DNA of 24,769 bases, taken from an uncultured virus (IMG/VR IMGVR_UViG_3300025010_000044). Taxonomy: Duplodnaviria > Heunggongvirae > Uroviricota > Caudoviricetes. Of the stretch, positions 1,065 to 21,870 are shown in pieces; the first letter of the stretch is position 1, and each line of letters begins with the position of its first letter. The notes under the pieces are model-generated. The model was not told the origin of the DNA and did no database searches. It saw only the letters and a program-made list of their open reading frames with translations. The stretch is from IMG/VR virus record IMGVR_UViG_3300025010_000044; one strand, given 5' to 3'. Made by a program: the position numbers and the translations under genes.

Positions 1065-1134
1065 AGAATTAGTAAGTTTGTACTGCTTAAATAAATACAC
1101 CCGTATTTAACGAGCTCCTTTGAATAGTTCCTGG

Positions 1135-1167: not shown

Positions 1168-1177
1168 AAACAGTTTG

Positions 1178-1210: not shown

Positions 1211-1218
1211 AAAAAGAC

Positions 1219-1248: not shown

Positions 1249-1281
1249 GCAAGTGAAAGAAAAACAAAAAAGGAACCTCAA

Positions 1282-2258: not shown

Positions 2259-2259
2259 A

Positions 2260-2436: not shown

Positions 2437-2642
2437 GTTACGCTAATAAAGTTAATTATGGAGATAAAATTAGATTTAGCAGAAAAGAATGGTCATTGTA
2501 TGATAACCAAGATTTGCGCAGATTTTTTCATGTAACTAAGTTGGAGGCGACACGATGCCTAACAACATTTTGTAAGGTAACCCTAATTGAAATGTGCCAA
2601 AGGATAAAACGAGAATTAAAATATAGAGGAATAGAGGTATAA
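2433..2642 (+). CDS. Small basic hypothetical protein, 69 aa
   Basis: AGGGG SD, ATGA coupling to the previous gene, stop one base before the next start. Confidence 0.7.
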   Translation: MSYANKVNYGDKIRFSRKEWSLYDNQDLRRFFHVTKLEATRCLTTFCKVTLIEMCQRIKRELKYRGIEV

Positions 2643-2643
2643 A

Positions 2644-3321: not shown

Positions 3322-3351
3322 TTTTGGGAATATTAATAAGCGAAAAAAGAC

Positions 3352-3594
3352 ATGACAACCATACACGAAAAAATAGCAAAAACAATTCCGGCGGAGTTTG
3401 TGCATAAAGACTTTGAGGTATTGGAGCTAATTCACCAACGGGGGAAACTCCCGGCGGGGAAATGGTATTCAATTCAAGAGTATATGAAAAAAGCCAATCT
3501 TAAAACACGGCGCAGTGTGTACCAAAGAATTGAAAGCGGGGAGCTTGAGACAACGAAGATAGACAAATTCACATTTGTAAAAGAGACTAAGTAA
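3352..3594 (+). CDS. Small helix-turn-helix DNA-binding protein (excisionase/MerR-like winged HTH), 80 aa
   Basis: WYSIQEYMKKANLKTRRSVYQRIESGELETTKIDKFTFV fits the S--E-A------R-SVY-RI--G-L pattern plus beta-wing of Xis-like HTH domains. Confidence 0.7.
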   Translation: MTTIHEKIAKTIPAEFVHKDFEVLELIHQRGKLPAGKWYSIQEYMKKANLKTRRSVYQRIESGELETTKIDKFTFVKETK

Positions 3595-3600
3595 AACCAA

Positions 3601-3646
3601 CCTCACCCCTACCCCTCTCCTTACAAAGGAGAGGGGATTTCTATTT
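3601..3646 (+). terminator. Strong hairpin / probable terminator closing the cassette
   Basis: CCCCTCTCCTT-ACA-AAGGAGAGGGG 11-bp perfect stem (3612-3636) followed by ATTTCTATTTT; starts 17 nt after the HTH gene stop. Confidence 0.75.
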
Positions 3647-3655
3647 TAAACAATC

Positions 3656-3735
3656 TTCAAATTTCAACCCTTCGGAGAGAAGGTAAATACTTAAATATTC
3701 GCTGTATTTAATCAAAAGTATTTATCTCTGTATTA
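3656..3735 (+). promoter_or_regulatory. Conserved upstream element, copy 1 (candidate late promoter)
   Basis: TTCAAATTTCAACCCT (3656-3671), 32 nt, then GTATT at 3704, 3718 and 3730. Same layout at 14334-14412. Confidence 0.6.
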
Positions 3736-3743
3736 GCATCAAC

Positions 3744-4634
3744 ATGATTACACCTTTAACATCACTTGAAGTTACTGTTTCACCGCTTGGCAGCGAACTC
3801 GATGTATTTTGGACGTTACCTACAACGTTACCAACAAATTATAAAGTGTACATTTTCCAACGCAGCCAGACCGACATTACACAAGGAGAAATTGATGATT
3901 ATTTCTCTCACATTGCAGATTTATCAGCCTTTGTTTACAACGGATTATTTGTATTTGACAAGATTAAAAACGGACAGGAAGGGATGGGCGTTTACGAGGT
4001 TATTAACGGTTTGGTTTACTATTATAAAGCTGTAATTAGAGACGAGACCGCGGGCGAATATTCCGCAACAATTTCAGCGAACGCAACACCTAACGCGGAT
4101 GTACTTGTAGAGATACATGACGGAAAAGAGATTGTGGCGAAAACATTAAGGAAGATGTTGGACGGATTGAAAAATGCAACCGGTAAGAAAATACAAGTAA
4201 GCAGAGATATTGAAGTCGTAAAACAATTTACCATGGGCGAGCCAAGGAACGATCAGTTTATGGTTGAACGTGTAAACGGAGCCAACTATCAGAACTACTG
4301 GGGAAACATTTTATCAGCGCACGGACAAAGCATTATACTTGGCGATATGGATACCGATGTAATTAGGGTAACATACATAACCATAAGCGGACCGGACAGA
4401 AGAGATTTAATGACAAATATTTTGAGAGGGCGCAAACCATTCTTAAAGATAATGGCAAAGAAATTAGGTGCGACCGACTGCCAGGTTACGATAGAGGGGG
4501 ATTATTATAATCCTTCCTTTCACGGTGCCAATGTAGTAGGTGTAACAATGATCTTTACTCTATTAATCGAGAACAAAACTAAAATTGACTATACAGAGAT
4601 TAATCAACATATAACCGATATGAAGGTGGTTTAA
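3744..4634 (+). CDS. Putative tail completion/terminator protein with N-terminal FN3/Ig-like domain, 296 aa
   Basis: N-terminal FN3-like pattern (L-V...LDVFWTLP...YKVYI-R...G-VYYYKA). Located just before the sheath gene. Confidence 0.5.
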   Translation: MITPLTSLEVTVSPLGSELDVFWTLPTTLPTNYKVYIFQRSQTDITQGEIDDYFSHIADLSAFVYNGLFVFDKIKNGQEGMGVYEVINGLVYYYKAVIRDETAGEYSATISANATPNADVLVEIHDGKEIVAKTLRKMLDGLKNATGKKIQVSRDIEVVKQFTMGEPRNDQFMVERVNGANYQNYWGNILSAHGQSIILGDMDTDVIRVTYITISGPDRRDLMTNILRGRKPFLKIMAKKLGATDCQVTIEGDYYNPSFHGANVVGVTMIFTLLIENKTKIDYTEINQHITDMKVV

Positions 4635-4635
4635 A

Positions 4636-4848
4636 ATGGCAAAAAAAATAAACGATGAAGAAAGCTTTGGCACGGTTGAAGAACAACCGAAAGAGGAAGC
4701 GATTGAAATTAACCTTAACACGTTTATTCATCAAAAGAATTTACCAAGTTGGGCGAAGACAAGGTTAGAACATTACTTAACTCTTAATCCAGGTGTAAAA
4801 ACAGAAAATACGGTAGAGCAATGGGAAAAGATTTTAGCAAAACTTTAA
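4636..4848 (+). CDS. Small hypothetical protein, 70 aa
   Basis: AGGTGG SD, ATG one base after the previous stop. Small pre-sheath ORF. Confidence 0.7.
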   Translation: MAKKINDEESFGTVEEQPKEEAIEINLNTFIHQKNLPSWAKTRLEHYLTLNPGVKTENTVEQWEKILAKL

Positions 4849-5615
4849 AGCTTTGGTCAACCGGCGCTGAGGTTGAGCTTTGGCAGAAACTTCTTAAGCA
4901 GAAGGGATATTTTGCCGAAGTAGTTGACGGCGTGTTTAGCGATAAGTTAAACGCGGCTACAAAGATTTATCAGGCAGATAATGGACTTATTGCCGATGGG
5001 ATGGTAGGTAAAATTACATGGGGTTTTGCCTTTGCCAACGTTAAGGAAGCAACGGCTTCCATTAAGGAAGTAAAAGACGAGCATATAAAAACCGAAGTTG
5101 ATTTGCTGGCGTGGATAAAAAGAGATTTAGGTCCATACATAAAAAAGGCTATTGCCGGATCAATATTTACCGAAGATTGGCTTGGAGCAATTGCCGCAAG
5201 GGAAACCGGTTTTCTCATCATTAGGTATGTGAACAAAGGCTATGATTTGGACACAATAACCAAATTGATGAAAGGGGATTTTAATAACGGCATTTACCAC
5301 GGGTTTAGTTATTGGCAGATTGATATTAGATCGTTCCCGGATTTTATTAATTCCGGTAAATGGATGGAGATACAAGCGAGCGCAGATAAAGCGGTTGATG
5401 TGCTTACCGGTAAAATGAAATATTTGAAAAAGCACGAAGAGAAACTTGGCTCTTATTGGTTTGGAAGAGCAATAACAGCGGCTTACAATTGCGGAGAAGG
5501 CAACGTAGAAAAGGTAATTATAACCGGGAAAGATATTGATTCACGGACTTTTAACAAAGATTATTCAAAAGAAGTATTTCGAATGAGAGAGGTATATAAA
5601 AGTGTTAATATATAA
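4821..5615 (+). CDS. Modular endolysin: peptidoglycan-binding domain plus lysozyme-like/lytic transglycosylase domain, 264 aa
   Basis: N-terminal PG_binding_1 pattern (LK--S-G-EV--WQ--L...VDGVF...T--YQ--NGL-ADG-VG--TW). Catalytic A-R-E-T, G-WQID and AAYNCG-GNV SLT-type motifs. Confidence 0.88.
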   Translation: MGKDFSKTLKLWSTGAEVELWQKLLKQKGYFAEVVDGVFSDKLNAATKIYQADNGLIADGMVGKITWGFAFANVKEATASIKEVKDEHIKTEVDLLAWIKRDLGPYIKKAIAGSIFTEDWLGAIAARETGFLIIRYVNKGYDLDTITKLMKGDFNNGIYHGFSYWQIDIRSFPDFINSGKWMEIQASADKAVDVLTGKMKYLKKHEEKLGSYWFGRAITAAYNCGEGNVEKVIITGKDIDSRTFNKDYSKEVFRMREVYKSVNI

Positions 5616-5653
5616 GAAAATCAATAAATCAACTAATTTAGGAGAATAAGATC

Positions 5654-7375
5654 ATGCCATTAGTACTCGAAGGTAAAACCTACACAGTGCCAGGGGTGTA
5701 TGGAACTGTAGAAATAATTAATCTTGGCAGCACCGCACTTCCGGTATTTAATACACTACTTATTGTAGCGGGAGCGAAAAAGGGTGTGCCCTACAATGGA
5801 ACCGGGAAAAAAGGTTACGAAGTAATTCTACCGTATTCATCTTTGAACACGGTTAAAGAATATTACGGAGTGAGTGATATTTCTCGTGCATTCGAATACG
5901 CCAAGAAGGGCGGTGCTGGAGTTGTGTACTGCATTAACGCAGCATCGTTAACCAACGCACTTGCAACCATAAAAGATAATGCAGGAACACCGGTAAACGC
6001 ATTTGATGTTTACCCGCGCGATAATTTTTACGGAGCGGCGGGAAACGACATATCATTAACAATGTCAACCGATACAAGCTTATTAACGCTAACTATTATT
6101 CCGCCTAAGCTCACGAAATTTTTAACTGCAAATGCAAGCACATCATCCCCATTTATTAGTCTTGGAGATGTTGAAGGACTTGCTGTAGGAATGGCTGTAA
6201 AAGTTTACAGCAACGCAATTACAATCGCACCGGATGCAGTGACAATTGTAAGTATCGACACGGTAAACAACCAGGTAGAACTTAGCGCAAACCCAACAGC
6301 GGCATTTGCTACTTCTGCTTGGGCACGTTTATTTGTTGAAGATACCGACAAACAAGCAACCACAACGTTTACGGCAACCGCAACCGTTACGGATGTAATT
6401 AACTGGATCAACTCCGGTAACATTTTAACAGCGGATAGAAAAACTTACGCGGGAGTTAAACCAACAACCTTAGCGAAGGTTTATCTACAGAACATTGCCA
6501 GCGCAACAAAAGGAACTTCTCCGGCAGCGACAGAAACCGGCGGAGGAGATTTTGATCTTCTTGCAGCTTTAGCGCCACAGTTGTTTGAAGAAATGACCAA
6601 CTACACAAAACAAAGAGTGAGATTAATTAATGTTGTTTCCAGCACAGCAGCAGTACACGCGGTTTATAAAACGCTTGCGGTAACTGAAAGAGCGGCGGGT
6701 AAATCATTACAGCTTATCCTTGGTTGTGCAACGGGAGATGTACTTCTTGCCGATAGCGATGCAGCACATCCTAAGAGCCGGGCAAAAGTTTTGAACAGCG
6801 ATGATTGTATTCTTGCCGGAATGGGCATGGATGCGAAAGCGCCTTATTTAAGTTTTGCTCCATTCTTTGCCGGATTAATGAGCGCACAAAGTGTTAAACG
6901 TAACCTTACCAATGACGCAGTTGACGCGCAAAGTGTAGAAAAGACTTTTGGTGAGTTTAATAAAGAAACAGCGACCGCCGGATACCTTGCAAACGGTGTA
7001 CTGTTAATCGGTACGGGTAAGAACGGGTATTACATCATTCAAGGAATTAATACCTACCAGAACCAAGCCACAATTTGGAATACAGACGATAAGAAAACCT
7101 ACTTAATCCAGCAACGGCAAATTGTTGACTACGTTTACGAAGGATACAAGAACGAAATGGAATTAGGAGTAGGCGCTGATGGATATGGACCAAGCGTAGC
7201 ATCTGTACAGGGCGGAAGAATCTTAAAGAAATTCCAGGATGACGGATTTATTTCTGATTGGAAGATTGTAAACGCATACCAGGAAGGTAATGCAGTAGTA
7301 ACCGAGCCGCAGATCAATCCTATTGACGCGATTGATTTTGTCGGGTTCATATTAAAAGTAATTGTTGACGCATAA
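5654..7375 (+). CDS. Contractile tail sheath protein, 573 aa
   Basis: N-terminal PGVY, L-I-G-A-KG-P, YGAAGNDI, and C-terminal I-QGINTY and P---IDF motifs. GGAG SD; followed by the tube gene. Confidence 0.9.
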   Translation: MPLVLEGKTYTVPGVYGTVEIINLGSTALPVFNTLLIVAGAKKGVPYNGTGKKGYEVILPYSSLNTVKEYYGVSDISRAFEYAKKGGAGVVYCINAASLTNALATIKDNAGTPVNAFDVYPRDNFYGAAGNDISLTMSTDTSLLTLTIIPPKLTKFLTANASTSSPFISLGDVEGLAVGMAVKVYSNAITIAPDAVTIVSIDTVNNQVELSANPTAAFATSAWARLFVEDTDKQATTTFTATATVTDVINWINSGNILTADRKTYAGVKPTTLAKVYLQNIASATKGTSPAATETGGGDFDLLAALAPQLFEEMTNYTKQRVRLINVVSSTAAVHAVYKTLAVTERAAGKSLQLILGCATGDVLLADSDAAHPKSRAKVLNSDDCILAGMGMDAKAPYLSFAPFFAGLMSAQSVKRNLTNDAVDAQSVEKTFGEFNKETATAGYLANGVLLIGTGKNGYYIIQGINTYQNQATIWNTDDKKTYLIQQRQIVDYVYEGYKNEMELGVGADGYGPSVASVQGGRILKKFQDDGFISDWKIVNAYQEGNAVVTEPQINPIDAIDFVGFILKVIVDA

Positions 7376-7393
7376 ACATAAGGAATTAAAAAA

Positions 7394-7942
7394 ATGGGAT
7401 TCGGAGAAATATTAGCACCACGAATTAAGGTTGGGACAATCGACAACCCGGAACTTTATTACAAAGCGTTGTCGGGTTCTCAACTTGTTCTTTCCGTCTT
7501 AGACGGTTCAAACAATTTAGTTGCAAGAGGAACCGGAATGAATTGGAATGAACAGTTCCAACAAACCGATTTAGCTGAATGGGGACAACGCCATTCTTTA
7601 GAAATTGTTACCGGTAGACAACCGATAGGACAAATAACGATCCAGACGTTTTTCTTTATGCACATCAATGATTCATTGCCAACCACTTCGGGATTAAAAG
7701 AATGGGCTGTTAGTGAACTGAGCGCAATTGTGCAAATAGCAGAACATGAAGATCCAAATTTATCCGGACTAATCATTGATGCCTTTGAAGGTGTAAAAAT
7801 TGCCGGACAAAGCGGTAATTGGAACGCACAAAGTCAATACATGAAAAATATGTCATTGGTTTATCGAGTTCGCCTTAACGGACTTGAATGGAAGCAAAGT
7901 CATGCAGATGGAGTTGCGTATCCGGCTAAGATAGCAGTTTAA
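7394..7942 (+). CDS. Tail tube protein, 182 aa
   Basis: Immediately after the sheath gene, typical size, beta-rich (EWG...EIVTG, FEGVKI...W). AGGA SD. Confidence 0.8.
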   Translation: MGFGEILAPRIKVGTIDNPELYYKALSGSQLVLSVLDGSNNLVARGTGMNWNEQFQQTDLAEWGQRHSLEIVTGRQPIGQITIQTFFFMHINDSLPTTSGLKEWAVSELSAIVQIAEHEDPNLSGLIIDAFEGVKIAGQSGNWNAQSQYMKNMSLVYRVRLNGLEWKQSHADGVAYPAKIAV

Positions 7943-7960
7943 TTAATTATTAACCATATC

Positions 7961-7992
7961 CTCCCGCTCTTTGCTTAGGCAAGGGGTGGGAG
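7961..7992 (+). terminator. RNA hairpin between tube and chaperone genes (attenuator/processing/stability element)
   Basis: CTCCCGCTCTTTGC-TTAG-GCAAGGGGTGGGAG: 14-bp stem with three G.U pairs, followed by TAATTTT. Confidence 0.6.
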
Positions 7993-8009
7993 TAATTTTA
8001 GAGGCAGAA

Positions 8010-8471
8010 ATGGACAGCAGCATTAGAGAAAAGATTTCATTTACGATAGATGAAAAGACATTCGAGTTTTTTGCAGAGCCTAACGCGATCGAAAGCAGAC
8101 AAATACGCAACGAGATGGCGGAACTGTTGGGCGGGCTTGATAACCTTCTTGAGCTTGAAAATTTGATTAGCCGAGAGTACAGCAATTATTTCGGCAAGAT
8201 AGAGAAGTTACCGGGCAGCAAAGAAGCCGAAGAAAAGAAGGATGAAGTTTTTGAAACGATGGTACGTGATCAGAAGTTTTACCTAAAACTTGTTAGCGTA
8301 ATCAACGAGAAAAAGAATTTACAGCAACTTGCCTTTCTTAAAGTAATGAAAATCAAGCCTTACGATTTTGATTTCTATTCACAGAAGGAAGAATATTTAA
8401 GAAAGATCGTTGTAGAGTTGGATGCGAAGCTTGAGGAAGTAAATAAAAAAAAAGTTACTACCGAAGCCTAA
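8010..8471 (+). CDS. Tail assembly chaperone (gpG-like), 153 aa
   Basis: Between tube and tape measure genes. ATG 8010 with GAGG SD at 8001-8004; acidic/helical; ends just after a slippery A9 run. Confidence 0.75.
   Translation: MDSSIREKISFTIDEKTFEFFAEPNAIESRQIRNEMAELLGGLDNLLELENLISREYSNYFGKIEKLPGSKEAEEKKDEVFETMVRDQKFYLKLVSVINEKKNLQQLAFLKVMKIKPYDFDFYSQKEEYLRKIVVELDAKLEEVNKKKVTTEA
8445..8454 (+). other. Programmed -1 ribosomal frameshift site (A AAA AAA)
   Basis: A9 run at 8445-8453 encoding KKK, five codons before the chaperone stop. The -1 frame is open from 8447 to 8782. Confidence 0.8.
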
Positions 8472-8782
8472 TAGCTCTTGACGAACAAGCACAACTACTG
8501 AGCGAAGATTTTGCAAAAGAAATTGAAGAACGCTCTACTTTAAAGCAGTGGTGGAAAGCCTTTTACGGGTATAGTAGTAATGATGAGAGATATTTGACAG
8601 TCACTGAAACTCAAATTCTTAACGACTACATCGATCTTAAGATAAAGAACTACAGAGAAAAGTACCCGGATAAGTTTATTGAAGGAACGGCGAAGGCAAG
8701 AGCGGTTAATCCAAATTACGATCAGCAAACGAACGAGGCTTTTAAGAAAGCACTTGAAAATATTGAAGTGGTGAACTTATGA
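8447..8782 (+). CDS. Frameshift extension of tail chaperone (gpGT-like, fused product ~257 aa)
   Basis: -1 frame reads KKSYYRSLIALDEQAQLL...KQWWKAFYGYSSNDERYLTVTETQILNDY...IEVVNL*. It has no ATG of its own and its stop overlaps the tape measure ATG. Confidence 0.75.
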   Translation, partial: KKSYYRSLIALDEQAQLLSEDFAKEIEERSTLKQWWKAFYGYSSNDERYLTVTETQILNDYIDLKIKNYREKYPDKFIEGTAKARAVNPNYDQQTNEAFKKALENIEVVNL

Positions 8783-11511
8783 CAAACGAAAGCGAATTAG
8801 CCCTTAGCATCAGAGCAAGAATTTTGCCAATGATTGAGGGCTCCAATGAATTCTTCTCTCAGCTTGAACAAACCCCACAGCGTATTACTGCGCCTATGCA
8901 GCAATTATCCCAAGACCCAACGTTCCAGCAAGGTTTAACGCCGCGCCAGATATCCGGGGTACAAGCGTTTGCCGGAGGTGAGGATCAAATGGAGATGCAG
9001 GATTACCAGGCAAAGATAAAAAAGCTTAGAGATGAAATAGCGATCAGCGTTAAGGCAAGCGAAGAGAGCGGACACAAAATAACAACTTACGATTTGTTTG
9101 GCATGCACAAAAAGATGCTAACTGAGCAAGCTGCTTTAGAGGATTTTCGCGGGAAACAAATGGCAGCTATTGATGAAATGGACATACCAAAAGAGAAGAA
9201 AGAGTTTATGAAAGAGGCGCTTGTAAGCGGGATAAAAGACGCATCCGCCGGGTTAGATGAACTAAATCCCAAATTAAAGGAAATGGTAGGGCAGATGAAA
9301 GAAGGGGGCGAGGCGGGGAAAGGTATTTATTCGATGTTGCAGCAAGGTGGATATTTGGCTTTAATGGGGCAAGCTACACAGACGGCTATGGGTTGGGCGC
9401 TTAGTGAGGCGAAGATATCGGCAAAGGAACTAACCTCTTTTAATTTAACCTCTCCAATGGGAAGTTACGCAGCGGGTGAGGAAGCAAAAGTATTTAAGGA
9501 AACCACGGAACGAACAAGGGAATCGGAACTTATAGGAAAAATAGTTGGAGCAATTGCGGCAGTTGGTTTAGTTGCGGCAACCGGAGGAACGGGTGCTATT
9601 CCGCTTGCGGCAATGGCTGCAGGTGGTTCTATGTTCGGTGGAATGATGGGGGGGCAATTTGCGGAAATTGAGAATACAGAAAGCAGGGCAAAGTTAGAAG
9701 CGGACATAAAATACAGGTCAGAGGCTTATGCAGAGGCATCAAGGTTAGTACAATCTTCAATGGCGTATGATATAAGCAAATTTAAGGCAGGACAGAGATT
9801 TGGAAAAGAGGGAATTGGTGGAAGCGTACTCGGTTATTCCCCGGATGAGACTTTAGAGTTACAGAAAAGTTTTGGCGAACAATACGGAAGGATGGATGAA
9901 GATTTATTTAAAGAACAAACATTATTTGCACGGAAAAGCGGACTTGACCCAAGGCAGATGTATCAGTTTGGTGAAATGGAACGGTTGACGGGGAATAAAC
10001 TCAGCTACGGTGAATTTTCAGAGGTGGAAAAGAAATCGCAACAGTTATTTGGAACCGACGTTGACAAAGAGAGAGTAGTTGACATACTGAAAGATATTCG
10101 TAGTGTTGCTATGAAGCAGTTGAAAGCCGGGATTGATACGCATGATGCGATTAGGTTTGCCGTGGACTTGCCGAGAATGTTAATGGGGAATGCTTCTCCT
10201 TACGGTAGAGCCGGAGATTTAGGAGCGGAAACATCAAGCGCGTTTGAGAGATTTGGCAACCCGCAAAATTTAGCGCAAGAATCGATTTTGTTTAGAGCTT
10301 GGGGAGAAAAAGGTATGTTTGGTCCAGATGGATATTTGTCACGGAGACGAGAGGGGATAATGAACCCAAGAAACTTCAGACCGGCAATAGAAGAATATAG
10401 GAGAGAAGGCGGTTACACAGATAAAGGGGCGCAGGCAATAATGGAAGGTATTGATCCGGGAATAACAATGGCAAAACCCGTTTACGATAAATTTATTGGT
10501 CTATTTGGAGAAAAAGGGGAGGCGCAATACGATGAATACAAACTTGATAAGAATGGGAAAAGAATAGCGATAAAGGGTGAAAAAGATGAGAAGGGTGAAC
10601 AAAAATATGAGATGGAATCGAAAACAGTAAAGTTAGAAGAATTCTATAAAATGGTGGAAAGCGAAGGTAAGGGAATAGGAGAAGGAGGAAAAGAATTCCT
10701 TGAAACGATGAAAAAGGCAAACAGTTTTAGAAGCGCAGAGGAAGCGCAACAGGTGATAATTAGAGAGAAGAACCTTGCCGCCGCAGACGCATTCCAGAAG
10801 ACAATTTTTGACGGGCAAAAAGCGCAGGCGGGATTTTGGGTAGATATGAGTAAGAACGCTGATGTACAAAAAGATATGGTAGAAACAATACGAAAAGGAA
10901 TTGATGCTCAGTACACTTGGATGATAACGAGCGGGATAGAAACGAATCAAGTAAAAATAAAAGAATTTCTCAAAGAACAAAAAGAACATGCTTACGAAAG
11001 GGCAGGGATAAAAGACCCAACCAACCTTAGTATTGATAAAAGAAGAGAAATACTTGAAAAACAAGGGTATAAAGAACTTGAAAGAATAATAATTAAGGCA
11101 GGTAAATACCCCGATGAGATGAAAGATGCAAGTTCGTTGGAAACTAAAGAACGAGTACAAAAAGACCTTAGCGGAAGAGGATATAAAGGAGATAGAGAAG
11201 CATTAGAAGAGCTAAAAAAACAAAAGGAAAAACTTGGGACAAGTCTTTTTGAAGAAGACATGAAGATCCCCCAAACATACAGAAATGAGCCGCAGAGACA
11301 GACGAGTGAAGTGAAAGAACTAACGGCAAAGTTAGACGGGATGGAAACGATGAACAGGCAAATGGAATCGTTAATAAACGGCATGTACCACTTAGGGGAC
11401 AAGCTTGAACTTGCATCAATGCGGCAAACAAACACAAAAGTAGAAATTAAAAGCGCAGATAATGATGTGTACGGGCAGCAAACAGATTACATAGAAGAGA
11501 ATAGGGCGTAA
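8779..11511 (+). CDS. Tape measure protein, 910 aa
   Basis: Longest ORF, follows the chaperones. Helical and E/K/A/G/M-rich, with a hydrophobic Gly/Ala segment (IVGAIAAVGLVAATGGTGAIPLAAMAAGG). Confidence 0.85.
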   Translation: MTNESELALSIRARILPMIEGSNEFFSQLEQTPQRITAPMQQLSQDPTFQQGLTPRQISGVQAFAGGEDQMEMQDYQAKIKKLRDEIAISVKASEESGHKITTYDLFGMHKKMLTEQAALEDFRGKQMAAIDEMDIPKEKKEFMKEALVSGIKDASAGLDELNPKLKEMVGQMKEGGEAGKGIYSMLQQGGYLALMGQATQTAMGWALSEAKISAKELTSFNLTSPMGSYAAGEEAKVFKETTERTRESELIGKIVGAIAAVGLVAATGGTGAIPLAAMAAGGSMFGGMMGGQFAEIENTESRAKLEADIKYRSEAYAEASRLVQSSMAYDISKFKAGQRFGKEGIGGSVLGYSPDETLELQKSFGEQYGRMDEDLFKEQTLFARKSGLDPRQMYQFGEMERLTGNKLSYGEFSEVEKKSQQLFGTDVDKERVVDILKDIRSVAMKQLKAGIDTHDAIRFAVDLPRMLMGNASPYGRAGDLGAETSSAFERFGNPQNLAQESILFRAWGEKGMFGPDGYLSRRREGIMNPRNFRPAIEEYRREGGYTDKGAQAIMEGIDPGITMAKPVYDKFIGLFGEKGEAQYDEYKLDKNGKRIAIKGEKDEKGEQKYEMESKTVKLEEFYKMVESEGKGIGEGGKEFLETMKKANSFRSAEEAQQVIIREKNLAAADAFQKTIFDGQKAQAGFWVDMSKNADVQKDMVETIRKGIDAQYTWMITSGIETNQVKIKEFLKEQKEHAYERAGIKDPTNLSIDKRREILEKQGYKELERIIIKAGKYPDEMKDASSLETKERVQKDLSGRGYKGDREALEELKKQKEKLGTSLFEEDMKIPQTYRNEPQRQTSEVKELTAKLDGMETMNRQMESLINGMYHLGDKLELASMRQTNTKVEIKSADNDVYGQQTDYIEENRA

Positions 11512-13163
11512 TGGGAAGAACCATTATAATAAAGCAACCGAAGCAAAGGAAAGTAATTCCCGAAGTAATTTCTTTCCGTAATCACATTAAAAACTTTGCA
11601 GATCAAGAAAATTTTGATGCGAGCAGATATGCATATTCAATAAATTTATTAAATGATGTTGACGGAGTTTTGGCAACGGCAAGAGTTTCGTTCACTTCTG
11701 CAATTGCACCGGCGGGGCTAAACATTGGGCACAATCAATTTTATAATTTGATGAAAATTAAACTTGCGGTTGGGAGCATCATCACTATTAAAATGGATAG
11801 CAAAAACAGTAAGCCGGATTTTCTTGGAATGATTGACAGAATTTACGAAGGTAAAATTTCAGATAGCGGCAGTGTTGGAAGAACGGTAAATATTAATTGC
11901 AGTTTGCTTGTGCCGAAAATGCTGATTAAAGATTCTATCCCCAATTCACCGGTATTAAGTGCCGATAAAGAATATTTGGAACCCAGACTTGGTGAGAATC
12001 GCTTAAAATTTTGGACTTACTTAAGGGGTGCAGAAATTGATAGCAAGGATTATCCTTTTAACAGTGAGCCGATTAAAGGGATAAAATGGGTATTACAGAA
12101 TATGCCCGGAACAAATATCGACAATAGCCCTTTCCGCGAAACGATCAAAGAAATGATCGACAACAATACAACAGATGTTGACGGAGTATCTATTTTCAAT
12201 TTTGAAATGTTGAATAATGAAATAATGTTCGATCCATCGAACTCGGTTTTTTTTGGAACTGTGTATGAGTACATACGGAAATTTTTAGACAATTATTTTT
12301 ATGAAATGTTTTTTGATACTGTAAAGGGGAAGAACGGGAAAACATACAATTCAATGACAATCCGGACAAAACCTTTTTCCTACAGTGATAATGAGAAACG
12401 AGGCTGGAAACTTTGGGATGATCTTGACACGGTAGTTTTTAAATCAGAGTTCAGAACAAGGGAAGAGTTGGGGACAGATGAATTTGAGCTGAGGAATTTT
12501 TTTTCAACTACCTATACAAGCAGCTTAATTGCCAACCAGGAAACCGCATTAGGAAAACTTGGAGCAATGTTCCCGGTAATCCACTTAGAGAGCATTAAAG
12601 AATATGGTTTACGGGAATTGGCGGTAAACTCGACAAATCTAAACATAAGGGAACTTACCGCAGAAATAAAGAAAAAATTAGAAAGCGGTGAAACGCCAAC
12701 GGAAGAAGAAAAAAGGGAAGAGTTTAAGTGGTTATTGGAGAAGCGAGATAAGGTTTTTCAGTGGAATGCTTGCAACGAACTTTTTGAAAAAGGAACATTA
12801 ACGGCATTAGGGAATAGTGAGTATAGAATTGGAAGAAAGTTGTTTTATCAAGACAAAGAATATTTTTATCAATACAATGATTTGAAGAACCAAGCGCAAA
12901 AATTTACCGGAGTTGAATATTATATAAAAAGTACAGCAAATAGTTGGACTTACGGTGCAGAATGGTTTACCGCTATGCAGTTGGTTCGCGGACAGGCAAA
13001 GGGAGTTATTAACGAACACATAATAGCTATGGAAAGTAAACCGGATGTTATTTTTAAGAAAAATAATTTAGATGGAAAAACAACAGCGGCAACACCAATA
13101 GATACAACCGAGAATAGAAGTAAGTATGAAAATGATCTAAACGGAATGTTGACAATGGCATGA
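11511..13163 (+). CDS. Baseplate hub protein (gp27/Tal-like), 550 aa
   Basis: Follows the tape measure gene (TAATG overlap). Motifs FYEMFFD, IR-KPF, I--YGLR, G---YRIG, EYYI--....W...W-T---LVRG are typical of hub proteins. Confidence 0.7.
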   Translation: MGRTIIIKQPKQRKVIPEVISFRNHIKNFADQENFDASRYAYSINLLNDVDGVLATARVSFTSAIAPAGLNIGHNQFYNLMKIKLAVGSIITIKMDSKNSKPDFLGMIDRIYEGKISDSGSVGRTVNINCSLLVPKMLIKDSIPNSPVLSADKEYLEPRLGENRLKFWTYLRGAEIDSKDYPFNSEPIKGIKWVLQNMPGTNIDNSPFRETIKEMIDNNTTDVDGVSIFNFEMLNNEIMFDPSNSVFFGTVYEYIRKFLDNYFYEMFFDTVKGKNGKTYNSMTIRTKPFSYSDNEKRGWKLWDDLDTVVFKSEFRTREELGTDEFELRNFFSTTYTSSLIANQETALGKLGAMFPVIHLESIKEYGLRELAVNSTNLNIRELTAEIKKKLESGETPTEEEKREEFKWLLEKRDKVFQWNACNELFEKGTLTALGNSEYRIGRKLFYQDKEYFYQYNDLKNQAQKFTGVEYYIKSTANSWTYGAEWFTAMQLVRGQAKGVINEHIIAMESKPDVIFKKNNLDGKTTAATPIDTTENRSKYENDLNGMLTMA

Positions 13164-15177: not shown

Positions 15178-15966
15178 ATGACTTACAACCAATATAAAAG
15201 TGATCTCGAAACTTCCTTATCAATAATTGATTTTATGATAGGAACAGTTGAACAAAACGCAACAGATGAATTTGATGTAGTCAATTATGCGGAAATATTG
15301 ATGAATTTAAACCGTGTACAACAATTGATAAAGAGATTATTGGCGGCGAATAAATATTTAAAAATAAGCGAAGAGCAATTCTCTAAAATGTTTGACGGGC
15401 AGACAAATAAATTGGTTGAGGTAACACATACGGTTACAGGGTATGACACCCTGATGAGTATAGCTCGAAAGTATAACACCACTGAAGAAGGGATTTTACA
15501 AAAGAACAATATTCTGAGCAGCGGTATAACGGCGGGGACGGAGATATTGGTTGAGGTTGAATCGAGCATTGGCTTGAATAAAATCTATGACCAAATTGCG
15601 GTTTACGGCAGCCAAATAGGAATGAATGTATTGGGAACGGATCTACCAAACGAACTTGTAGAAGACGGTGTAGGTGAAATGAAAATATTAACGAATGAAG
15701 AAACCGTTAGCCAGGGAGTGCAGAACAGAATTTATACGAAGGCGGGAGATTACCCGTTGGAGCCAAATATCGGGATAGAACTTGCGGGAAGCGAGATACC
15801 GGCAGATTTGCAAAACGGTATGTTACTGTTAAAAATAATGGACCAACTTGAGAACGATCCGCGGATAAGTGAAGTTGAAAATTTGGAAGTTGAGGCATCG
15901 GGGAATGCAATGATAATAACGGCGCAAGTAAAAACAATTAATAATCAAATCTTAGAGATAAAATAA
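15178..15966 (+). CDS. Baseplate wedge protein: LysM domain plus gp25/gpW-like domain, 262 aa
   Basis: LysM pattern HTV-GYDTL-SIARKYNTT---I---N-I-----AGT-I-V. C-terminal gp25-like T--G-YPL-P-IG ... L--DPRI--V. Confidence 0.85.
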   Translation: MTYNQYKSDLETSLSIIDFMIGTVEQNATDEFDVVNYAEILMNLNRVQQLIKRLLAANKYLKISEEQFSKMFDGQTNKLVEVTHTVTGYDTLMSIARKYNTTEEGILQKNNILSSGITAGTEILVEVESSIGLNKIYDQIAVYGSQIGMNVLGTDLPNELVEDGVGEMKILTNEETVSQGVQNRIYTKAGDYPLEPNIGIELAGSEIPADLQNGMLLLKIMDQLENDPRISEVENLEVEASGNAMIITAQVKTINNQILEIK

Positions 15967-16433: not shown

Positions 16434-18614
16434 ATGCCTAAAATAAGTGAATATGCAGAATTAGTAACCCCTACCGATGATGATTTATTGGTAACGGTAA
16501 GTGCCGGAGTTACGAAAAAAATAAAACGAGCTAATTTTTTAGGGAAGACGCTGAATTACATAGGTATTGCCGGAGCCGCCGGTTTTGGCGTTGGTATTTG
16601 CCCAAATACCTTGCCCGCCGGAATGCTTGCCTTGGTCGGTTATGATGTAATTGGTAACGATCAATACGGCAACTACCAATACAGTGATGGAAGTATAATG
16701 GTTTGGGTGCCAAAGTTTTACTACAAAGTTTTACATGACGGGACAACAAATATTAACAAAGTGCTTATTGCAAGTGTTTATGATTACGAGAACGAAACAG
16801 CCGCCAACGCCGCCGGTTATGCTTTGCACCGTTCATTCATTGATGGCGGCGTAATTAAAGACGGCTTCTTTATTGATAAATATAAATGGTCGCTTACAAA
16901 CTTTGTCTTGAGCACGAGCGGTATTGCAAGTTCTATTAAAAACGGAAACCCGATTGCGGCTGATGCGGCGTTAAGACGCGATAGAGCGATAACAATTACT
17001 AACGCAACGGCAAGCGGTGCAGAAGTAACGGTAACGGCAACTTCTCACGGATTAACAACCGGAACCCCCTCCGCGATGACATTAGTTATTAGCGGTGTTG
17101 TAGGCATGACAGACCTTAACGGCACAAAAACAGTAATAAGAATTACCGATGCAAACACAATTGTGGTTAGCTTAACAACCGCACAAACCTATACCTCAGG
17201 TGGAATAGCTACTACTGCAAACTTTCCGGGAAGTTTTTCTTCTTGTAAAAGTAATTCTCAATCTCCTACCGATACTTACGGCGGCGCTTGGGCAGTTGCA
17301 AAAAGTCGCGGAAATGATTTTGCTATTTGGTCTATGTTTATAAGTTCGGCAATTGCATTGTTAAGCCTTGCCCATGGGCAAGCGGCTACAAGTACAACTA
17401 ATTGTGCCTGGTATTTAACAAATAAAAATTACCCCAAGGGCGCGAACAATTATGGTGCAGACATTGATGACGCAACATGTACATTTACCGCTTGCAGTGA
17501 TGCGTATTGGGCTTCGCGCAATGAAGCAAGAAAGAACGGCAGCGGAACTCTTTTTGCCAAGACAACCCACAACGGGCAAAATTGCGGAGTTGCAGACATT
17601 CAAGGGGACCAGTGGCAAATAGCACAAGGATTAACGGCAATTATATCAACGCTTGCCTTTGACGCGGCAGTTGCACAAGCTTTAACCGATACTCTTGCAG
17701 CAATAACCGCCGGTACTATTGATCTTACGATTAACGGAGTTTCTTACCAGCAAGCATTTGACACAAGCGCGACAATTACAGCAACTGCTTTTTTTACTGC
17801 TCATGCAGCGGCATTAGACACAGCCGGGATTACTTTGACCAATCCCTCAGCAGCCGCTTTAAGATTTGTTGCTAAAGTTGCCGGAGTTCCTTTTACGTTT
17901 GTTGAAACTTCCGCCGGGACAGATGGGACTTGGACACAATCAGCCGTTACTGCAAACGTTACACCTGCGGTTGCCACGGATACTAATACGAAAGTACAAA
18001 TAAAAGCAACAAATCATGGTTTATTAGTAAACAATTGGATAATGATTACAGCCGTAGGAGGCATTACTGATCTGAATAGTAAGATATGGAAAATATCAGA
18101 TGTTATTGATGCAAACAACATTAAGGTTGCTTGTGCAACAGCTCAGGTATGGACAAGTGCCGGAACAATCACTAAAGGCAAATTCTACATTTTAAAAGAA
18201 AGTGTAGCTATTAAAAATATAACGGGATCAAATGCCGGTGCAACAGACCATTTTGGGGCAACCGGTGTTGCGGCATTAATGGAAGAGATCGTTCCCAATT
18301 TTGCAAATGGTGGAGTTTTTGCTCAAAAGTTTGGCAATAGCACAAACCAAGTTTTGCCGTTTAATACATCCCGTACAAACGTAAATTATAAATTAGGAGC
18401 TTTGGGATTACCAGATGTAAGCGGTATGAGCACGGGTGGAATTAATTTATTTGGGACAGATTACTTCTATCAATATTTGATAAATGAACTGTGCCCGGGT
18501 TTCGGCGGCATTTGGGATTATTCTACTACTGCCGGGGTTTGGAGTGTCAGTTTGTATTACAATCGTGCTTATTCAGGTAGGAATGTTTCGGCGCGGGCGT
18601 GCCTTTATGTTTAG
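16434..18614 (+). CDS. DGR target protein: fibre/receptor-binding adhesin with C-terminal C-type-lectin-like (Mtd/FGE-type) variable domain, 726 aa
   Basis: Motifs MVWVPKFYY, LHRSFIDGG, FFIDKY, THNG--CGVAD--G--W, and terminal GG-W....AGVW---L---R--S--NVSARA. The VR occupies the last ~40 codons. Confidence 0.92.
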   Translation: MPKISEYAELVTPTDDDLLVTVSAGVTKKIKRANFLGKTLNYIGIAGAAGFGVGICPNTLPAGMLALVGYDVIGNDQYGNYQYSDGSIMVWVPKFYYKVLHDGTTNINKVLIASVYDYENETAANAAGYALHRSFIDGGVIKDGFFIDKYKWSLTNFVLSTSGIASSIKNGNPIAADAALRRDRAITITNATASGAEVTVTATSHGLTTGTPSAMTLVISGVVGMTDLNGTKTVIRITDANTIVVSLTTAQTYTSGGIATTANFPGSFSSCKSNSQSPTDTYGGAWAVAKSRGNDFAIWSMFISSAIALLSLAHGQAATSTTNCAWYLTNKNYPKGANNYGADIDDATCTFTACSDAYWASRNEARKNGSGTLFAKTTHNGQNCGVADIQGDQWQIAQGLTAIISTLAFDAAVAQALTDTLAAITAGTIDLTINGVSYQQAFDTSATITATAFFTAHAAALDTAGITLTNPSAAALRFVAKVAGVPFTFVETSAGTDGTWTQSAVTANVTPAVATDTNTKVQIKATNHGLLVNNWIMITAVGGITDLNSKIWKISDVIDANNIKVACATAQVWTSAGTITKGKFYILKESVAIKNITGSNAGATDHFGATGVAALMEEIVPNFANGGVFAQKFGNSTNQVLPFNTSRTNVNYKLGALGLPDVSGMSTGGINLFGTDYFYQYLINELCPGFGGIWDYSTTAGVWSVSLYYNRAYSGRNVSARACLYV
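18489..18604 (+). repeat. DGR variable repeat (VR) including G/C element and start of IMH
   Basis: 116-nt ungapped match to 19028-19143 with 19 mismatches, 18 at TR adenines. G/C tract CGGCGCGGGCG at 18589-18599. Confidence 0.95.
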
Positions 18615-18621
18615 ATGCACA

Positions 18622-18637
18622 GCGAACGATAGTGAGC
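18622..18637 (+). other. Putative DGR target-recognition DNA hairpin (non-canonical)
   Basis: GC-GA-AC-[GATA]-GT-GA-GC, starting 7 nt after the target stop codon, where DGR hairpins normally lie. Confidence 0.45.
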
Positions 18638-18662
18638 GATAATTAAGAAGAACGAAAAGGAA

Positions 18663-19025
18663 ATGGCAGAATATCATTTAATAGTAAAAAAGATTAGAGA
18701 CATGATGGTTTACAACAACATCATGCTTAAGCAATTTCCTAAACATGAAAAGTATTTATTGGCAAATAAAATAAGGGAGACCGGATATGAAATATTTGAA
18801 TCCGCCATAACCATCAACAAAAAGTTCTATAAGAAAACTACGTTTTCTGATTTGAACATAAAGCATGAATTGTTAAGGCAATTTGTAAACCTTGCAGCAG
18901 AACTAAAATACATTGATCTGCAAAAGCATAGAGTATCTCAAACACATATAGACGAAGTTGGTAAGATGATAGGAGCATGGATAAAGAAAGAACTTGGAGA
19001 CGATGAACAGAAGGGAAAGGCTTAA
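18663..19025 (+). CDS. avd: DGR accessory variability determinant (Avd, four-helix bundle), 120 aa
   Basis: FPKHEKY-LA--IR...L----E-LR----LA----YI...EVGKMIGAW-K signature; located between VR and TR. Confidence 0.93.
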   Translation: MAEYHLIVKKIRDMMVYNNIMLKQFPKHEKYLLANKIRETGYEIFESAITINKKFYKKTTFSDLNIKHELLRQFVNLAAELKYIDLQKHRVSQTHIDEVGKMIGAWIKKELGDDEQKGKA

Positions 19026-19027
19026 TA

Positions 19028-19143
19028 ATGTGCCCGATTTTCGGCGGCAATTGGAATAATTCAACTAATGCCGGAGTTTGGAATGTCAATTTGAATAACA
19101 ATCGTACTAATTCAAATAGAAATGTTTCGGCGCGGGCGTGACT
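19028..19143 (+). repeat. DGR template repeat (TR)
   Basis: Intergenic between avd and RT. 34 adenines and 12 AAY codons in the VR frame (11 AAT, 1 AAC). Ends in the G/C tract plus a divergent IMH*. Confidence 0.95.
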
Positions 19144-19299
19144 CTGATATTTATATTGAAAGCTATTACGTTAAGGCGTAGCAGATGCAATCTATCAAAG
19201 GGAGCGTTTTCCTTGTCCACAGTTGGCAAAAATGCAACTGAATAATAATTAAAGTAGTAAGTGCGAAATTCTGATTATTTAGGAACTTATAAAAAAAGA

Positions 19300-20337
19300 A
19301 TGAAGAGAATAGGAAATTTGAAATCGAGCTGGTGCAATTATGAAGCTTTGCATAAAGCATTTTACGAAGTGAAGAAAAACAAAAGTTATTATCACTCAAT
19401 AATAGAATTTGAAAGCAATTTAGTGAGCAACTTAAACAGAATATTAATATCACTTGAGGACGGCACCTACAAAGTGCAGCCTACACGGGATTTTTATATT
19501 ACCGATCCAAAGGTTCGTTTAATTCAAGCTCCGCAATTTGAGGATAGGATCGTACAACATGCAGTCCTAAACTCTATTCGTGAAAAAGTTGAATGCAAGT
19601 TTATTGATCAAACGTTCGCGTGCATTAAAGGACGCGGAACACACAGTGCAAGTGATCTATTGAAAAGATATTTGGTGAATTACAAGAATGAAGGGTATTA
19701 CTTAAAGGTTGATATTAAGAAATTCTTCTATACGATTAATCACAAAGTTTTAGATTATCAATTAAGCCGAATAATAAAATGCAAACCCACGCTTGAATTA
19801 TTAAAGAAGTTTTATAAAGATGGAACGGGCAAGGGACTTCCTTTGGGCAATGTAACATCACAGTTATTTGCCAATCTTGCGCTAAACCCCATAGATCATC
19901 TGTTGAAAAGAGTTCTGAAATGTATTCATGTAATTAGATATATGGACGACATTGTAATTCTTTCTAAAAGTAAAACATTTTTGCATCAAGTTCTCGAGAT
20001 CTTAAAACAATTGCTTGCAAAACTCAAATTGGTAACGAACAAAAAGACGCAAATAGGACTAATTGCTGATGGAATAGACTTTGTTGGTTACAGAACATGG
20101 TTTAATAACAGATTGATCCGGAAACGATCATTATATAAAATAAAAAGAGTATTGAAAAAGCATCCAGACATAAACAGAATAGCCTCATATTTGGCGCACT
20201 CGAAACGTACAAACTCATTAATTTATGTACTAATGCAAATGGTAAAGGTAATTGATTCTTTACTTCTCGAATTTGTAAAAACATGGTTAATTAAAAACAA
20301 GGAAAAAGGAGAATATCATGCGATATTTCAAAGCTAA
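19300..20337 (+). CDS. DGR reverse transcriptase, 345 aa
   Basis: MKRIGNL start, PK-RLI-AP-F-DRIVQHA, GRGTH, YYLK-DIKKFF, GLPLGNVTSQLFAN (DGR-type SQ motif), RYMDD, GIDFVGY. No maturase/endonuclease extension. Confidence 0.96.
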   Translation: MKRIGNLKSSWCNYEALHKAFYEVKKNKSYYHSIIEFESNLVSNLNRILISLEDGTYKVQPTRDFYITDPKVRLIQAPQFEDRIVQHAVLNSIREKVECKFIDQTFACIKGRGTHSASDLLKRYLVNYKNEGYYLKVDIKKFFYTINHKVLDYQLSRIIKCKPTLELLKKFYKDGTGKGLPLGNVTSQLFANLALNPIDHLLKRVLKCIHVIRYMDDIVILSKSKTFLHQVLEILKQLLAKLKLVTNKKTQIGLIADGIDFVGYRTWFNNRLIRKRSLYKIKRVLKKHPDINRIASYLAHSKRTNSLIYVLMQMVKVIDSLLLEFVKTWLIKNKEKGEYHAIFQS

Positions 20338-20722
20338 AAAAGTAATTACAGAATTTACAACGCTGAGTTTTGGCAGCACAAACCAAGAGGATAAGATAAT
20401 CCATTATGATGAATTGGATGGAGTAGAATATCTTGGTGTAGATAGTACTGATGTAGATATTTTGTCAAAACAACCGGCGGAAATTGAAGCGGTTGAATTA
20501 ACCTTTGCAGAAATTAAGCCAATACTTGACAATTGCAGAATGATGATAGAGTATAATTCAATTATCGAGAGAAAAATAGCTGAAAAATATTCCATCCCCC
20601 AAGAAATTAAAATGCTAAAACTTAGCGTAACAGATGCAACAAGAATAGCATATCAATCTTACGTTGATGAATGCAAAGCGGAAGTAAGACCATCAAAATT
20701 AGCAATGGGTTTGGTTGAATAA
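20318..20722 (+). CDS. Hypothetical protein, possibly fibre assembly/chaperone, 134 aa
   Basis: AGGAG SD; overlaps the RT end by 20 nt. C-terminal I--KYS---E...Y--YV-ECK---K--MG pattern resembles small genes accompanying fibre genes. Confidence 0.6.
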   Translation: MRYFKAKKVITEFTTLSFGSTNQEDKIIHYDELDGVEYLGVDSTDVDILSKQPAEIEAVELTFAEIKPILDNCRMMIEYNSIIERKIAEKYSIPQEIKMLKLSVTDATRIAYQSYVDECKAEVRPSKLAMGLVE

Positions 20723-21870
20723 TGAAAACACCGAACGAAATTCTAAAAGATTTAAGCGGTGATTTTGTCGCAAACCAGAGCAAAATAACATTTTTAGGGT
20801 TGGAATCGGTTAGTCGTGCAATTTTAACAGCTGTAAAAAATGTGCTATACGAACTATGGAACGATCTGTTTCAGCAAAAGCGGAAAATGTTTCTCGATAC
20901 GTCTAAAGGAAGTGATCTTATTGCTTTGGGGGCAAAGTTGGGATTAACTATAAACAGCGCATCAAAGAGTAGTAATGTTTTATTATTTAATGGACCAACG
21001 GATACCGTCATTGTTTCCGGCACCGCGGTTAAAAGTATTATAAGCGGCGAACAAGTAGTTACTACTGAAGAAATAATTTTAGGGAAAAGTAATTTGCTGG
21101 TTGGAGATGTAATCTCTAACAGCATCGGGAATGCAGTTCTTGCAGAAAGCAGCAATACCGGCAAAAAAACAAGAGTTGGGGTGAATGAATTAACTCAATT
21201 GGTTATACCAATATCCGGAGTTACGGTAACAAATTTAGTCCCTTCCGTTGGAGGAGGGGATGCGGAAAGCGATGAAGTATTTAGAGAGCGGATAAGGAAT
21301 TATATAAAAACGCTTAACCAGGGCACTCGTGATTTTTATACAGCATTAGCAAAAACAGTTGAAACAACTATTAACAAAGTTTTGGTTAAAGCAGATCCGG
21401 CAAACATGGGAGTGAAATTATACTTGCTAAAGAATTCTTTTGCTCCGTACACAAACGTAGAACTACTTGCCATTGCCGCGAGCGTATATGCAAATCAGAG
21501 AGCATGTAACGGTTTAGTTTGTTATAACGCATTGTTAAAATCAATTAATGTGGTTTTTGATTATGAGGGAGATGGAGTTACAAGTAAAGAAATAGTCTTT
21601 AGCGCTGTTGCGGCTGCAATTGCAAATTACATTGAACCAAAAGTAGATTATGCGGCGACAATTCTTTACAACGATATTCTGAACATTGTTTTAGATATAA
21701 GCGGGATAAAAAAATTAAACTTGAAATCACTTCTTGTGAATAACTATCAAGCTGATATTATTTGTGCGGAAACAGAAGTGCCGAGATTTACTTATTTAAA
21801 AACTACTGATTCAACCACGGTAACATCGGTTGAAAAAGACTTAAATCAAAAATTGATAACGGCAGAATGA
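20722..21870 (+). CDS. Baseplate J-like wedge protein, 382 aa
   Basis: FLDT--G-DL--LG, I-SGT-V, A---G---VG-N-L, VTN-----GG-DAESDE-FRERI...GT are baseplate J signatures. Confidence 0.9.
   Translation: MKTPNEILKDLSGDFVANQSKITFLGLESVSRAILTAVKNVLYELWNDLFQQKRKMFLDTSKGSDLIALGAKLGLTINSASKSSNVLLFNGPTDTVIVSGTAVKSIISGEQVVTTEEIILGKSNLLVGDVISNSIGNAVLAESSNTGKKTRVGVNELTQLVIPISGVTVTNLVPSVGGGDAESDEVFRERIRNYIKTLNQGTRDFYTALAKTVETTINKVLVKADPANMGVKLYLLKNSFAPYTNVELLAIAASVYANQRACNGLVCYNALLKSINVVFDYEGDGVTSKEIVFSAVAAAIANYIEPKVDYAATILYNDILNIVLDISGIKKLNLKSLLVNNYQADIICAETEVPRFTYLKTTDSTTVTSVEKDLNQKLITAE

Follow-up and report, generated by a model that had tools for sequence, protein, structure and literature searches.

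The 24,769 nt sequence analysed here (the window), from an uncultured virus of the Caudoviricetes (IMG/VR record IMGVR_UViG_3300025010_000044), very probably carries an intact diversity-generating retroelement (DGR) of the type known from Bordetella phage BPP-1, with the order target gene, avd, template repeat (TR) and reverse transcriptase (RT) gene (nt 16434 – 20337). It lies among the baseplate genes of a contractile-tailed, temperate phage, the host of which is probably a member of the Ignavibacteriaceae, and the same high confidence extends to the mechanism proposed below. The DGR itself is a textbook example, one more among tens of thousands. The unusual part is a clade-wide target hairpin that is paired in part by mismatches. 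Our proposal, for which we judge the chances to be about even, is that in a large clade of phage DGRs, with hosts in several phyla, the target is marked by a DNA mini-hairpin with G·A pairs whose folding is confined to the sense strand, that is interchangeable with a perfect stem of the BPP-1 type, and that is read in retrohoming as a single-strand hairpin and not as a cruciform. Some DGRs regarded as 'repeat-less' would carry it.

The variable repeat (VR; nt 18489 – 18604) and the TR (nt 19028 – 19143) align without gaps at an offset of 539 nt and differ at 19 of 116 positions, 18 of which are adenines in the TR (A>G, 9; A>T, 6; A>C, 3). Given that the TR has 34 adenines in 116 nt, this corresponds to a hypergeometric P of 6e-11. 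The lone mismatch at another base, T>G at nt 18499, adjoins a mutated A. The alignment described in the initial annotation, with its offset and mismatch counts, was reproduced in full, and the six codon changes it quoted (AAT to ATT, GAT, TAT, ACT, AGT and GGT) are all present in the VR. Its estimate of about 10^14 protein variants was recomputed as 15^12 (~1.3e14), from the 12 AAY codons in the TR, each of which can give 15 amino acids and no stop. Mutation of one AGA codon (VR position 18579) could yield a stop. The VR/TR pair is the top direct repeat of the window (115 nt, 84%), the next repeat families being no longer than 38 nt, and the VR is in frame, covering codons 686 – 724 of the 726 aa target. 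A GC-rich stretch (nt 18585 – 18601) is identical in VR and TR, and divergence begins at nt 18602, as between the initiation of mutagenic homing sequence (IMH) and its TR counterpart (IMH*). The initial annotation had also suggested a search for more VRs; none was found in the window by repeat search, or in the adjoining record G001.

Like the rest of the element and the genes described here on either side of it, the two protein-coding genes of the cassette lie on the plus strand, and both are uninterrupted, as had been claimed. The accessory variability determinant gene, avd (nt 18663 – 19025, 120 aa), is above the family cut-offs (PF22296 bAvd, 82 vs 40 bits; NF033474, 96 vs 80 bits) and matches phrog_3206. 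The RT open reading frame (345 aa; phrog_1423) runs intact from an ATG at nt 19300 to nt 20337, with a longer GTG start at nt 19261, and carries R73 (equivalent to R74 of the BPP-1 enzyme, bRT), the motif LGNVTSQ beginning at L182, and YMDD beginning at Y214. R74, I181 and the signature motif [I/V/L]GxxxSQ of DGR RTs have been described (10.1101/2020.04.29.068544). Among RTs of solved structure the best relative is bRT, at 151 bits, and the other eight, from group II introns, retrons and defence-associated RTs (DRT), reach no more than 65 bits. The alternative that the RT derives from a group II intron, a retron or a defence system, the repeat being an unrelated duplication, can draw on weak matches to the models of those families (group II, 144 bits; retron/DRT, 66 bits), but these are far below the curated cut-offs (300 and 235 bits, respectively), the motif is of the LGxxxSQ type rather than the QGxxxSP of group II intron and retron RTs, avd adjoins the RT, and the VR/TR mismatches are adenine-specific. 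By these sequence comparisons the alternative is effectively refuted. Counting somewhat against the assignment, the RT tree, made by a quick method and with long reference branches, took in DGR RTs only, without group II or retron outgroups, so that placement relative to group II introns rests on the motif and the scores. Between TR and RT lies a putative structured spacer RNA (nt 19142 – 19281) that matches Rfam RT-14 over the full model length (E 3.5e-4) at 45.6 bits, slightly under the gathering score of 48.1. The related RT-10 motif occupies the same position in BPP-1, as described by Weinberg et al. (PMC5737381).

Structure prediction for the target (nt 16434 – 18614, 726 aa), a check proposed in the initial annotation, gave a C-type lectin (CLec) fold of the FGE/TaqVP type, with inserted domains and the VR at the C-terminus. 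An AlphaFold model based on 115 aligned sequences reached a pLDDT of 83.7 and a pTM of 0.81 (an alignment of 16 sequences gave a pLDDT of 44.5). The best fold match of this predicted model is TaqVP (5vf4; Z 31.4, root-mean-square deviation 2.8, 297 aligned residues), in agreement with Foldseek, followed at Z 12 – 13 by PvdO, by Mtd (1yu0, Z 12.5) and by TvpA (Z 12.2). The intact, BPP-1-type architecture that had been recognised from the window is accordingly borne out by the Avd, an RT nearest to bRT, the RT-14-like spacer and a predicted lectin-fold target; the spacer RNA, the domain insertions and the hairpin after the VR, described below, are additions to the initial annotation. From its fold and its place between baseplate genes, the target, called a virion adhesin in that annotation, probably functions in host attachment.

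Evidence that the element has operated comes from comparison with two relatives, L001 and L084. Of 113 sites compared, only 6 differ between the window's TR and theirs and 31 between the VRs, and of these 31 differences 25 (L001) and 23 (L084) fall on TR adenines. Where the TRs differ at a base other than A, each of the two VRs matches the TR of its own element in 5 of 5 cases for L001 and in 3 of 4 for L084. Since VRs follow the non-A substitutions of their own TR, copying from TR to VR must have taken place after the lineages split, and the alignments in this way show retrohoming since divergence from these relatives. The initial annotation had spoken of active diversification; this holds for the past, and with regard to the present no VR polymorphism was seen, the contigs of runs X3, X2 and X5 carrying one invariant VR. 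In X3 and X2 (depth ~46 and 39) a single contig contains the whole stretch and shows no differences; X5, which belongs to another study and has a depth of 2.5, carries the same VR as the window. These three runs are those that cover the VR, the pieces from X7 lying outside it. The element worked in the recent past of the lineage, and the sampled population carries one fixed VR. Apparent VR variants in the read tables belong to another phage, all 12 listed differences matching L008, and were rejected as a sign of activity.

The absence of VR variants from the contigs of four runs tells against present activity, although contigs drop rare variants. It is a real, if tentative, possibility that the cassette is intact but now silent, or fires very rarely, as in a dormant prophage or under strong purifying selection, and so does not at present diversify host range; this would be compatible with its identity as a DGR. 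Along with the invariant VR in X3, X2 and, from a second study, X5, this would fit the loss of TR and RT or of the whole cassette in close relatives (L003, L089, L092, L006 and L163), which shows the cassette to be dispensable. On the other side, every catalytic and cis element is intact, and Roux et al. (PMC8144416) describe both under-detection at 20 – 50x coverage and masking by purifying selection.

The candidate target-recognition signal, GCGAAC-GATA-GTGAGC (nt 18622 – 18637), sits just after the stop codon of the target, between VR and avd. Outward from a GRNA loop (GATA, nt 18628 – 18631) it has two Watson-Crick pairs, then a tandem 5'-GA/5'-GA mismatch, then a further two pairs. In the definition of Guo et al. 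(2011), the BPP-1 signal is a GC-rich inverted repeat of 7 – 10 bp, closed by a GRNA loop and able to fold on either strand (PMC3240598); no perfect inverted repeat of this kind follows the VR of the window. By analogy, the hairpin would act like the BPP-1 target signal but fall outside its inverted-repeat definition.

Relatives were drawn from three scans: the best 80 of 152 viral matches, the best 80 of 416 metagenome matches (78 loci), and 69 genome matches, which gave 68 loci. The target C-terminus was present in 211 of 228 sequences, and 160 loci remained after the removal of cut loci and duplicates. They comprise 82 DGR-positive loci (with TR and Avd, one being the window's own copy), 44 cassette-less loci (no RT or TR in a span of at least 1.5 kb) and 34 left unclassed. 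The tandem-G·A form was found in 52 of the 82 DGR-positive loci, a Watson-Crick stem of at least 4 bp in 21, and neither in 9; the corresponding figures for the 44 cassette-less loci are 8, 2 and 34. A hairpin of either kind is thereby associated with the cassette (73/82 vs 10/44; Fisher P 8e-14). By shuffling or background, 0.04 occurrences of the tandem-G·A form were expected, and at the same offset after the TR it occurs in 2 of 82 loci. In a census of mismatch types, GA/GA was counted 53 times and the next type 3 times. Among 17 reference phage DGRs the tandem-G·A form was not found, the same rule giving 9 Watson-Crick stems and 8 with neither.

Where rows of the form GA-NN-GRNA-NN-GA were collected with no requirement for pairing (n = 54), the inner pairs were Watson-Crick in 52 (GC/GC, 39; AC/GT, 10; GT/AC, 2; TC/GA, 1), compared to a permutation mean of 31.9, and none of 10000 permutations reached this value; as the rows are related, the result is not a strict probability. 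AC/GT inner pairs occur in two separate clades of the quick RT tree. A blind scan of viral contigs with one exact form gave at least 120 matches, 73 of which had enough flanking sequence, and 15 of these had an RT downstream. In a control scan with the pairing broken, an RT lay downstream in none of the 62 matches scored (of 68). The RT count was used for this comparison, as a strict TR test passed only 2 of the 15 RT-positive loci, probably from the test window overlapping the IMH. The window's own hairpin form, used as an exact pattern, gave a single match.

Several observations weigh against the hairpin proposal. By nearest-neighbour DNA folding the hairpin is barely predicted, at -0.6 kcal/mol (z +0.94), and 171 of 200 shuffled sequences do as well. 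The count of 52 in 82 was obtained under a relaxed rule, and about 34 of these loci have no Watson-Crick outer pair next to the tandem; a stricter rule, by which a Watson-Crick pair is required outside the G·A tandem, finds 19 of 82. The motif is also not exclusive to DGRs: 57 of the 73 scored viral matches had no RT, TR or target homolog nearby, so the motif is either generic or often due to chance. Lastly, the element is always between VR and avd in related cassettes, and for this reason its position cannot separate a DNA hairpin from an RNA or promoter element.

Read in this other way, GA-NN-GRNA-NN-GA might serve as a promoter or RNA element where an avd-TR-RT transcript begins, or bind a protein as double-stranded DNA, an explanation we regard as unlikely. 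The weak folding energy would suit it, and a sigma-70-like site (nt 18616 – 18643) overlaps the hairpin, such sites occurring in the window at chance frequency (12 vs 13.8). It is countered by the element having the GRNA loop consensus and the position of the hairpin tested in BPP-1 (PMC3240598), and by the alternation of the tandem-G·A form with perfect Watson-Crick GRNA hairpins, the G·A label changing 17 times in the quick RT tree, with at least 11 changes forced by starred branches. In addition, the inner pairs covary (52/54), and a sequence-specific site would not require pairing.

The DNA hairpin, the reading proposed here, has a particular consequence for strandedness. Nearest-neighbour folding of the antisense strand of the window's hairpin gave no fold. 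The complement has a tandem T·C and a loop without G·A closure, so the hairpin should fold on the sense strand only, arguing for a single-strand hairpin rather than a cruciform. In one model the complementary DNA (cDNA) pairs with a transiently single-stranded target, and a stem-loop prolongs the open state (PMC12875486); a hairpin confined to the sense strand would fit this model, and fits a cruciform less well. According to Kimoto and Hirao, conventional thermodynamics miss the stability of mini-hairpins (PMC13037366), and strong stacking of tandem GA has been described (PMC8163305), in both cases for sequences other than that of the window.

The distinction bears on how cDNA finds and enters the VR, and on whether a cruciform or a single-strand hairpin is involved. 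As a perfect repeat folds on both strands, the two could not be told apart by Guo et al.; a naturally one-stranded hairpin would make them directly testable in the DGR system reconstituted in E. coli. Wu et al. reported high-confidence inverted repeats in 127 of 372 DGRs (PMC5758913). If the proposal is correct, a cryptic form that is invisible to inverted-repeat searches would be present in some of the two thirds of DGRs reported as repeat-less; it could explain in part why only 34% of the 372 had a recognisable inverted repeat, and would improve the prediction of DGR targets. GRA triloops were described in archaeal DGRs by Paul et al. (PMC4372165). No description of a tandem-G·A target hairpin was found in the literature searched, which consisted mostly of papers outside subscription; the regions concerned are listed in supplements to Wu et al., and these may be relevant to it.

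A tandem-G·A hairpin was also seen in ColE1 (L267), where the only one found, GAGC-GTA-GCGA near position 1332, is nested in an outer stem resembling the arms of the window's hairpin. This may well be the primosome assembly site of the plasmid, in which case the DGR signal would resemble a signal for single-strand priming.

The mechanism envisaged has four steps. By analogy with BPP-1, a complex of Avd and RT would bind an RNA that spans the TR and the structured spacer. The RT would then copy the TR with misincorporation opposite adenines, as the conserved R73 and L182 suggest and as the product pattern seen in the VR would reflect. The cDNA would replace the VR from the GC-rich IMH onwards, for which the VRs that track their own TR provide indirect evidence, and some 12 – 17 codons would be rewritten in the binding tip of the predicted C-type lectin protein, probably for host attachment. 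The GRNA-loop hairpin after the stop codon, conserved in relatives, would aid recognition of the target, being held by tandem G·A pairs and so expected to form on the sense strand only, while that strand is single.

The relatives offer a clean series of cassette losses. In L003 (G003) a clean deletion has fused the final codons of avd with those of the RT gene, so that TR, spacer and RT are gone, but an intact avd and the hairpin are kept; no other RT was found in the 92 kb record, which is rated complete. Stubs of avd persist in L089 and L092, and half a hairpin in L006 and L163. In three loci the slot of avd, TR and RT, between the target and a 134 aa gene (described below), is occupied by a small GIY-YIG nuclease gene (L008, nt 6626 – 6973; L009, nt 6730 – 7059; L126, nt 3101 – 3412). 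One speculative reading is that a homing endonuclease of the free-standing kind has taken the cassette's place. Two phages with a GIY-YIG gene in this slot appear in X2, a run that also holds the phage of the window. The VRs of cassette-less relatives differ from the window TR mostly at adenines (L003, 19/26; L008, 16/26; L009, 18/32). Diversification of L008 in trans by the DGR of the window was considered and rejected: its VR differs from the window TR at 10 non-A sites, so that a fossil VR is the simpler explanation. Two or three copies of the target family are present per contig or genome in L172, L174 and L206 and in L113 and L141 (a Psychrobacter genome; one 64 kb metagenome contig), and these are candidates for multi-target or duplicated DGRs.

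The lectin fold of the target is interrupted by several insertions. The first is a small beta-barrel (nt 16980 – 17222, residues ~183 – 263) that is above the cut-off for PF16190 and resembles the E1 FCCH domain (Z 10.0) and the barrel of phi92 endosialidase (Z 9.4). In an alignment it is missing from many homologs (P0005, P0006 and P0008 – P0012). The main body of a second FCCH-like barrel (nt 17994 – 18197, residues ~521 – 588) was recognised as a second copy by phmmer and in alignment A1, and nested in this barrel is an insert of ~110 aa (nt 17652 – 17993, residues ~407 – 520) similar to phage cement proteins or sheath subdomains (Atlas structure matches, TM 0.67 – 0.82; low confidence in the AlphaFold model of the target described above). 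A tblastn search of the collected loci gave no copy of the insert other than that of the window itself (L082). Its DNA has a 71% match in another gene of G005 (nt 15587 – 15708) and in a separate X3 contig, which suggests capture from a structural gene. In the window protein and 120 homologs, phmmer counted no FCCH-like barrel in 36, one in 78 and two in 7, as lower bounds. The variability of the insertions among homologs indicates that the target also evolves by domain shuffling.

The end of the RT gene is overlapped by the 134 aa gene (nt 20318 – 20722), which has no Pfam, PHROG or NCBIfam match; its nearest Atlas clusters are unnamed phage proteins. In many relatives the gene comes next after the target whether or not a cassette is present, and it is a probable assembly or adaptor partner of the target.

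The initial annotation placed the DGR in an uncharacterised myovirus. A contractile tail is indicated by matches to baseplate J, sheath-initiator-like and tube-initiator-like proteins, and the phage can be placed more closely, since G001 holds its head genes and its closest relative is a prophage of an Ignavibacteriaceae genome. Upstream of the target is a LysM/sheath-initiator-like baseplate gene (nt 15178 – 15966; PF10934, E 1e-6, below cut-off; phrog_975, phrog_120), and downstream a baseplate J-like gene (nt 20722 – 21870; PF04865, above cut-off; phrog_6). A 573 aa gene in the position of a tail sheath (nt 5654 – 7375) lacks Pfam, PHROG and NCBIfam matches, and its placement suggests a divergent sheath. 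Record G001 is 100% identical to nt 1 – 11527 of the window, and has matches to terminase, portal, protease and major capsid proteins. The relative G002:C1, found in an Ignavibacteriaceae metagenome-assembled genome, shares ~80 – 87% DNA identity over long matches; integrase and recombinase genes lie at one of its ends, and the other continues into the host genes thrS-infC-rplT-pheST. Because of this integrase and Ignavibacteriaceae flank, and because the next relative of the RT in the quick tree is from an uncultured Melioribacter, the carrier is likely to be a temperate, contractile-tailed phage of Ignavibacteriota. The case for this host is weakened by its dependence on relatives, the integrase and host flank having been seen in G002:C1 only. 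All sampled words of the window are present in four groundwater metagenome runs of one study, from which the phage may come.

Other regions of the phage also deserve mention. Five or six small genes without Pfam or PHROG matches (nt 1219 – 3594) interrupt the virion gene block, in what looks like a variable moron region; nt 1809 – 3342 is missing from the matches to G002:C1, and a 36 nt repeat flanks the region at nt 1146 and 3626. A short non-coding stretch (nt 3589 – 3698), possibly a late promoter or regulatory repeat, recurs several times in G001, in G003 and in G002, where some copies are on other contigs of the host genome. The head module of G001 (L258, L259, L260) encodes several DNA methyltransferases, a 2175 aa DarB-like protein, a ddrB-ParB protein and a 1240 aa protein with a Zeta-toxin/kinase domain, which recalls the anti-restriction cargo of P1-type phages.

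Three known systems can be compared with the element. DNA mini-hairpins of the type GCGNNAGC are exceptionally stable, are underestimated by standard thermodynamics and occur at single-strand priming sites (PMC13037366). The commonest core in the DGR family, GC-GATA-GC (39/52), fits GCGNNAGC, whereas the core of the window, AC-GATA-GT, is not a canonical mini-hairpin. The sections consulted of PMC13037366 and PMC8163305 make no link between mini-hairpins or tandem GA and DGRs. With TaqVP (PDB 5VF4), the target shares 297 matched residues of 381, spanning residues 65 – 726 of the model, and the VR aligns with TaqVP 344 – 381; the identity is only 22%, and the window protein differs in having two FCCH-like barrels and a cement/sheath-like insert within the lectin fold. 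With BPP-1 (mtd-avd-TR-brt) it shares the gene order, a TR placed just after avd, a similar VR-TR offset (539 vs 556 nt), an RT that is 33% identical over 301 aa with bRT R74 and YMDD kept, a C-terminal CLec VR, and a GRNA-loop element after the stop codon. The two differ in the spacer, which is RT-14-like in the window and RT-10 in BPP-1 (PMC5737381), and in the setting, as the window has a 726 aa target that contains inserted barrels and is encoded among the baseplate genes of a contractile-tailed phage with a likely Ignavibacteriota host. They differ also in the hairpin: the perfect 8 bp GC stem of BPP-1 folds on both strands (-12.2 and -11.9 kcal/mol), whereas the stem in the window is made up of four Watson-Crick pairs and a tandem G·A.

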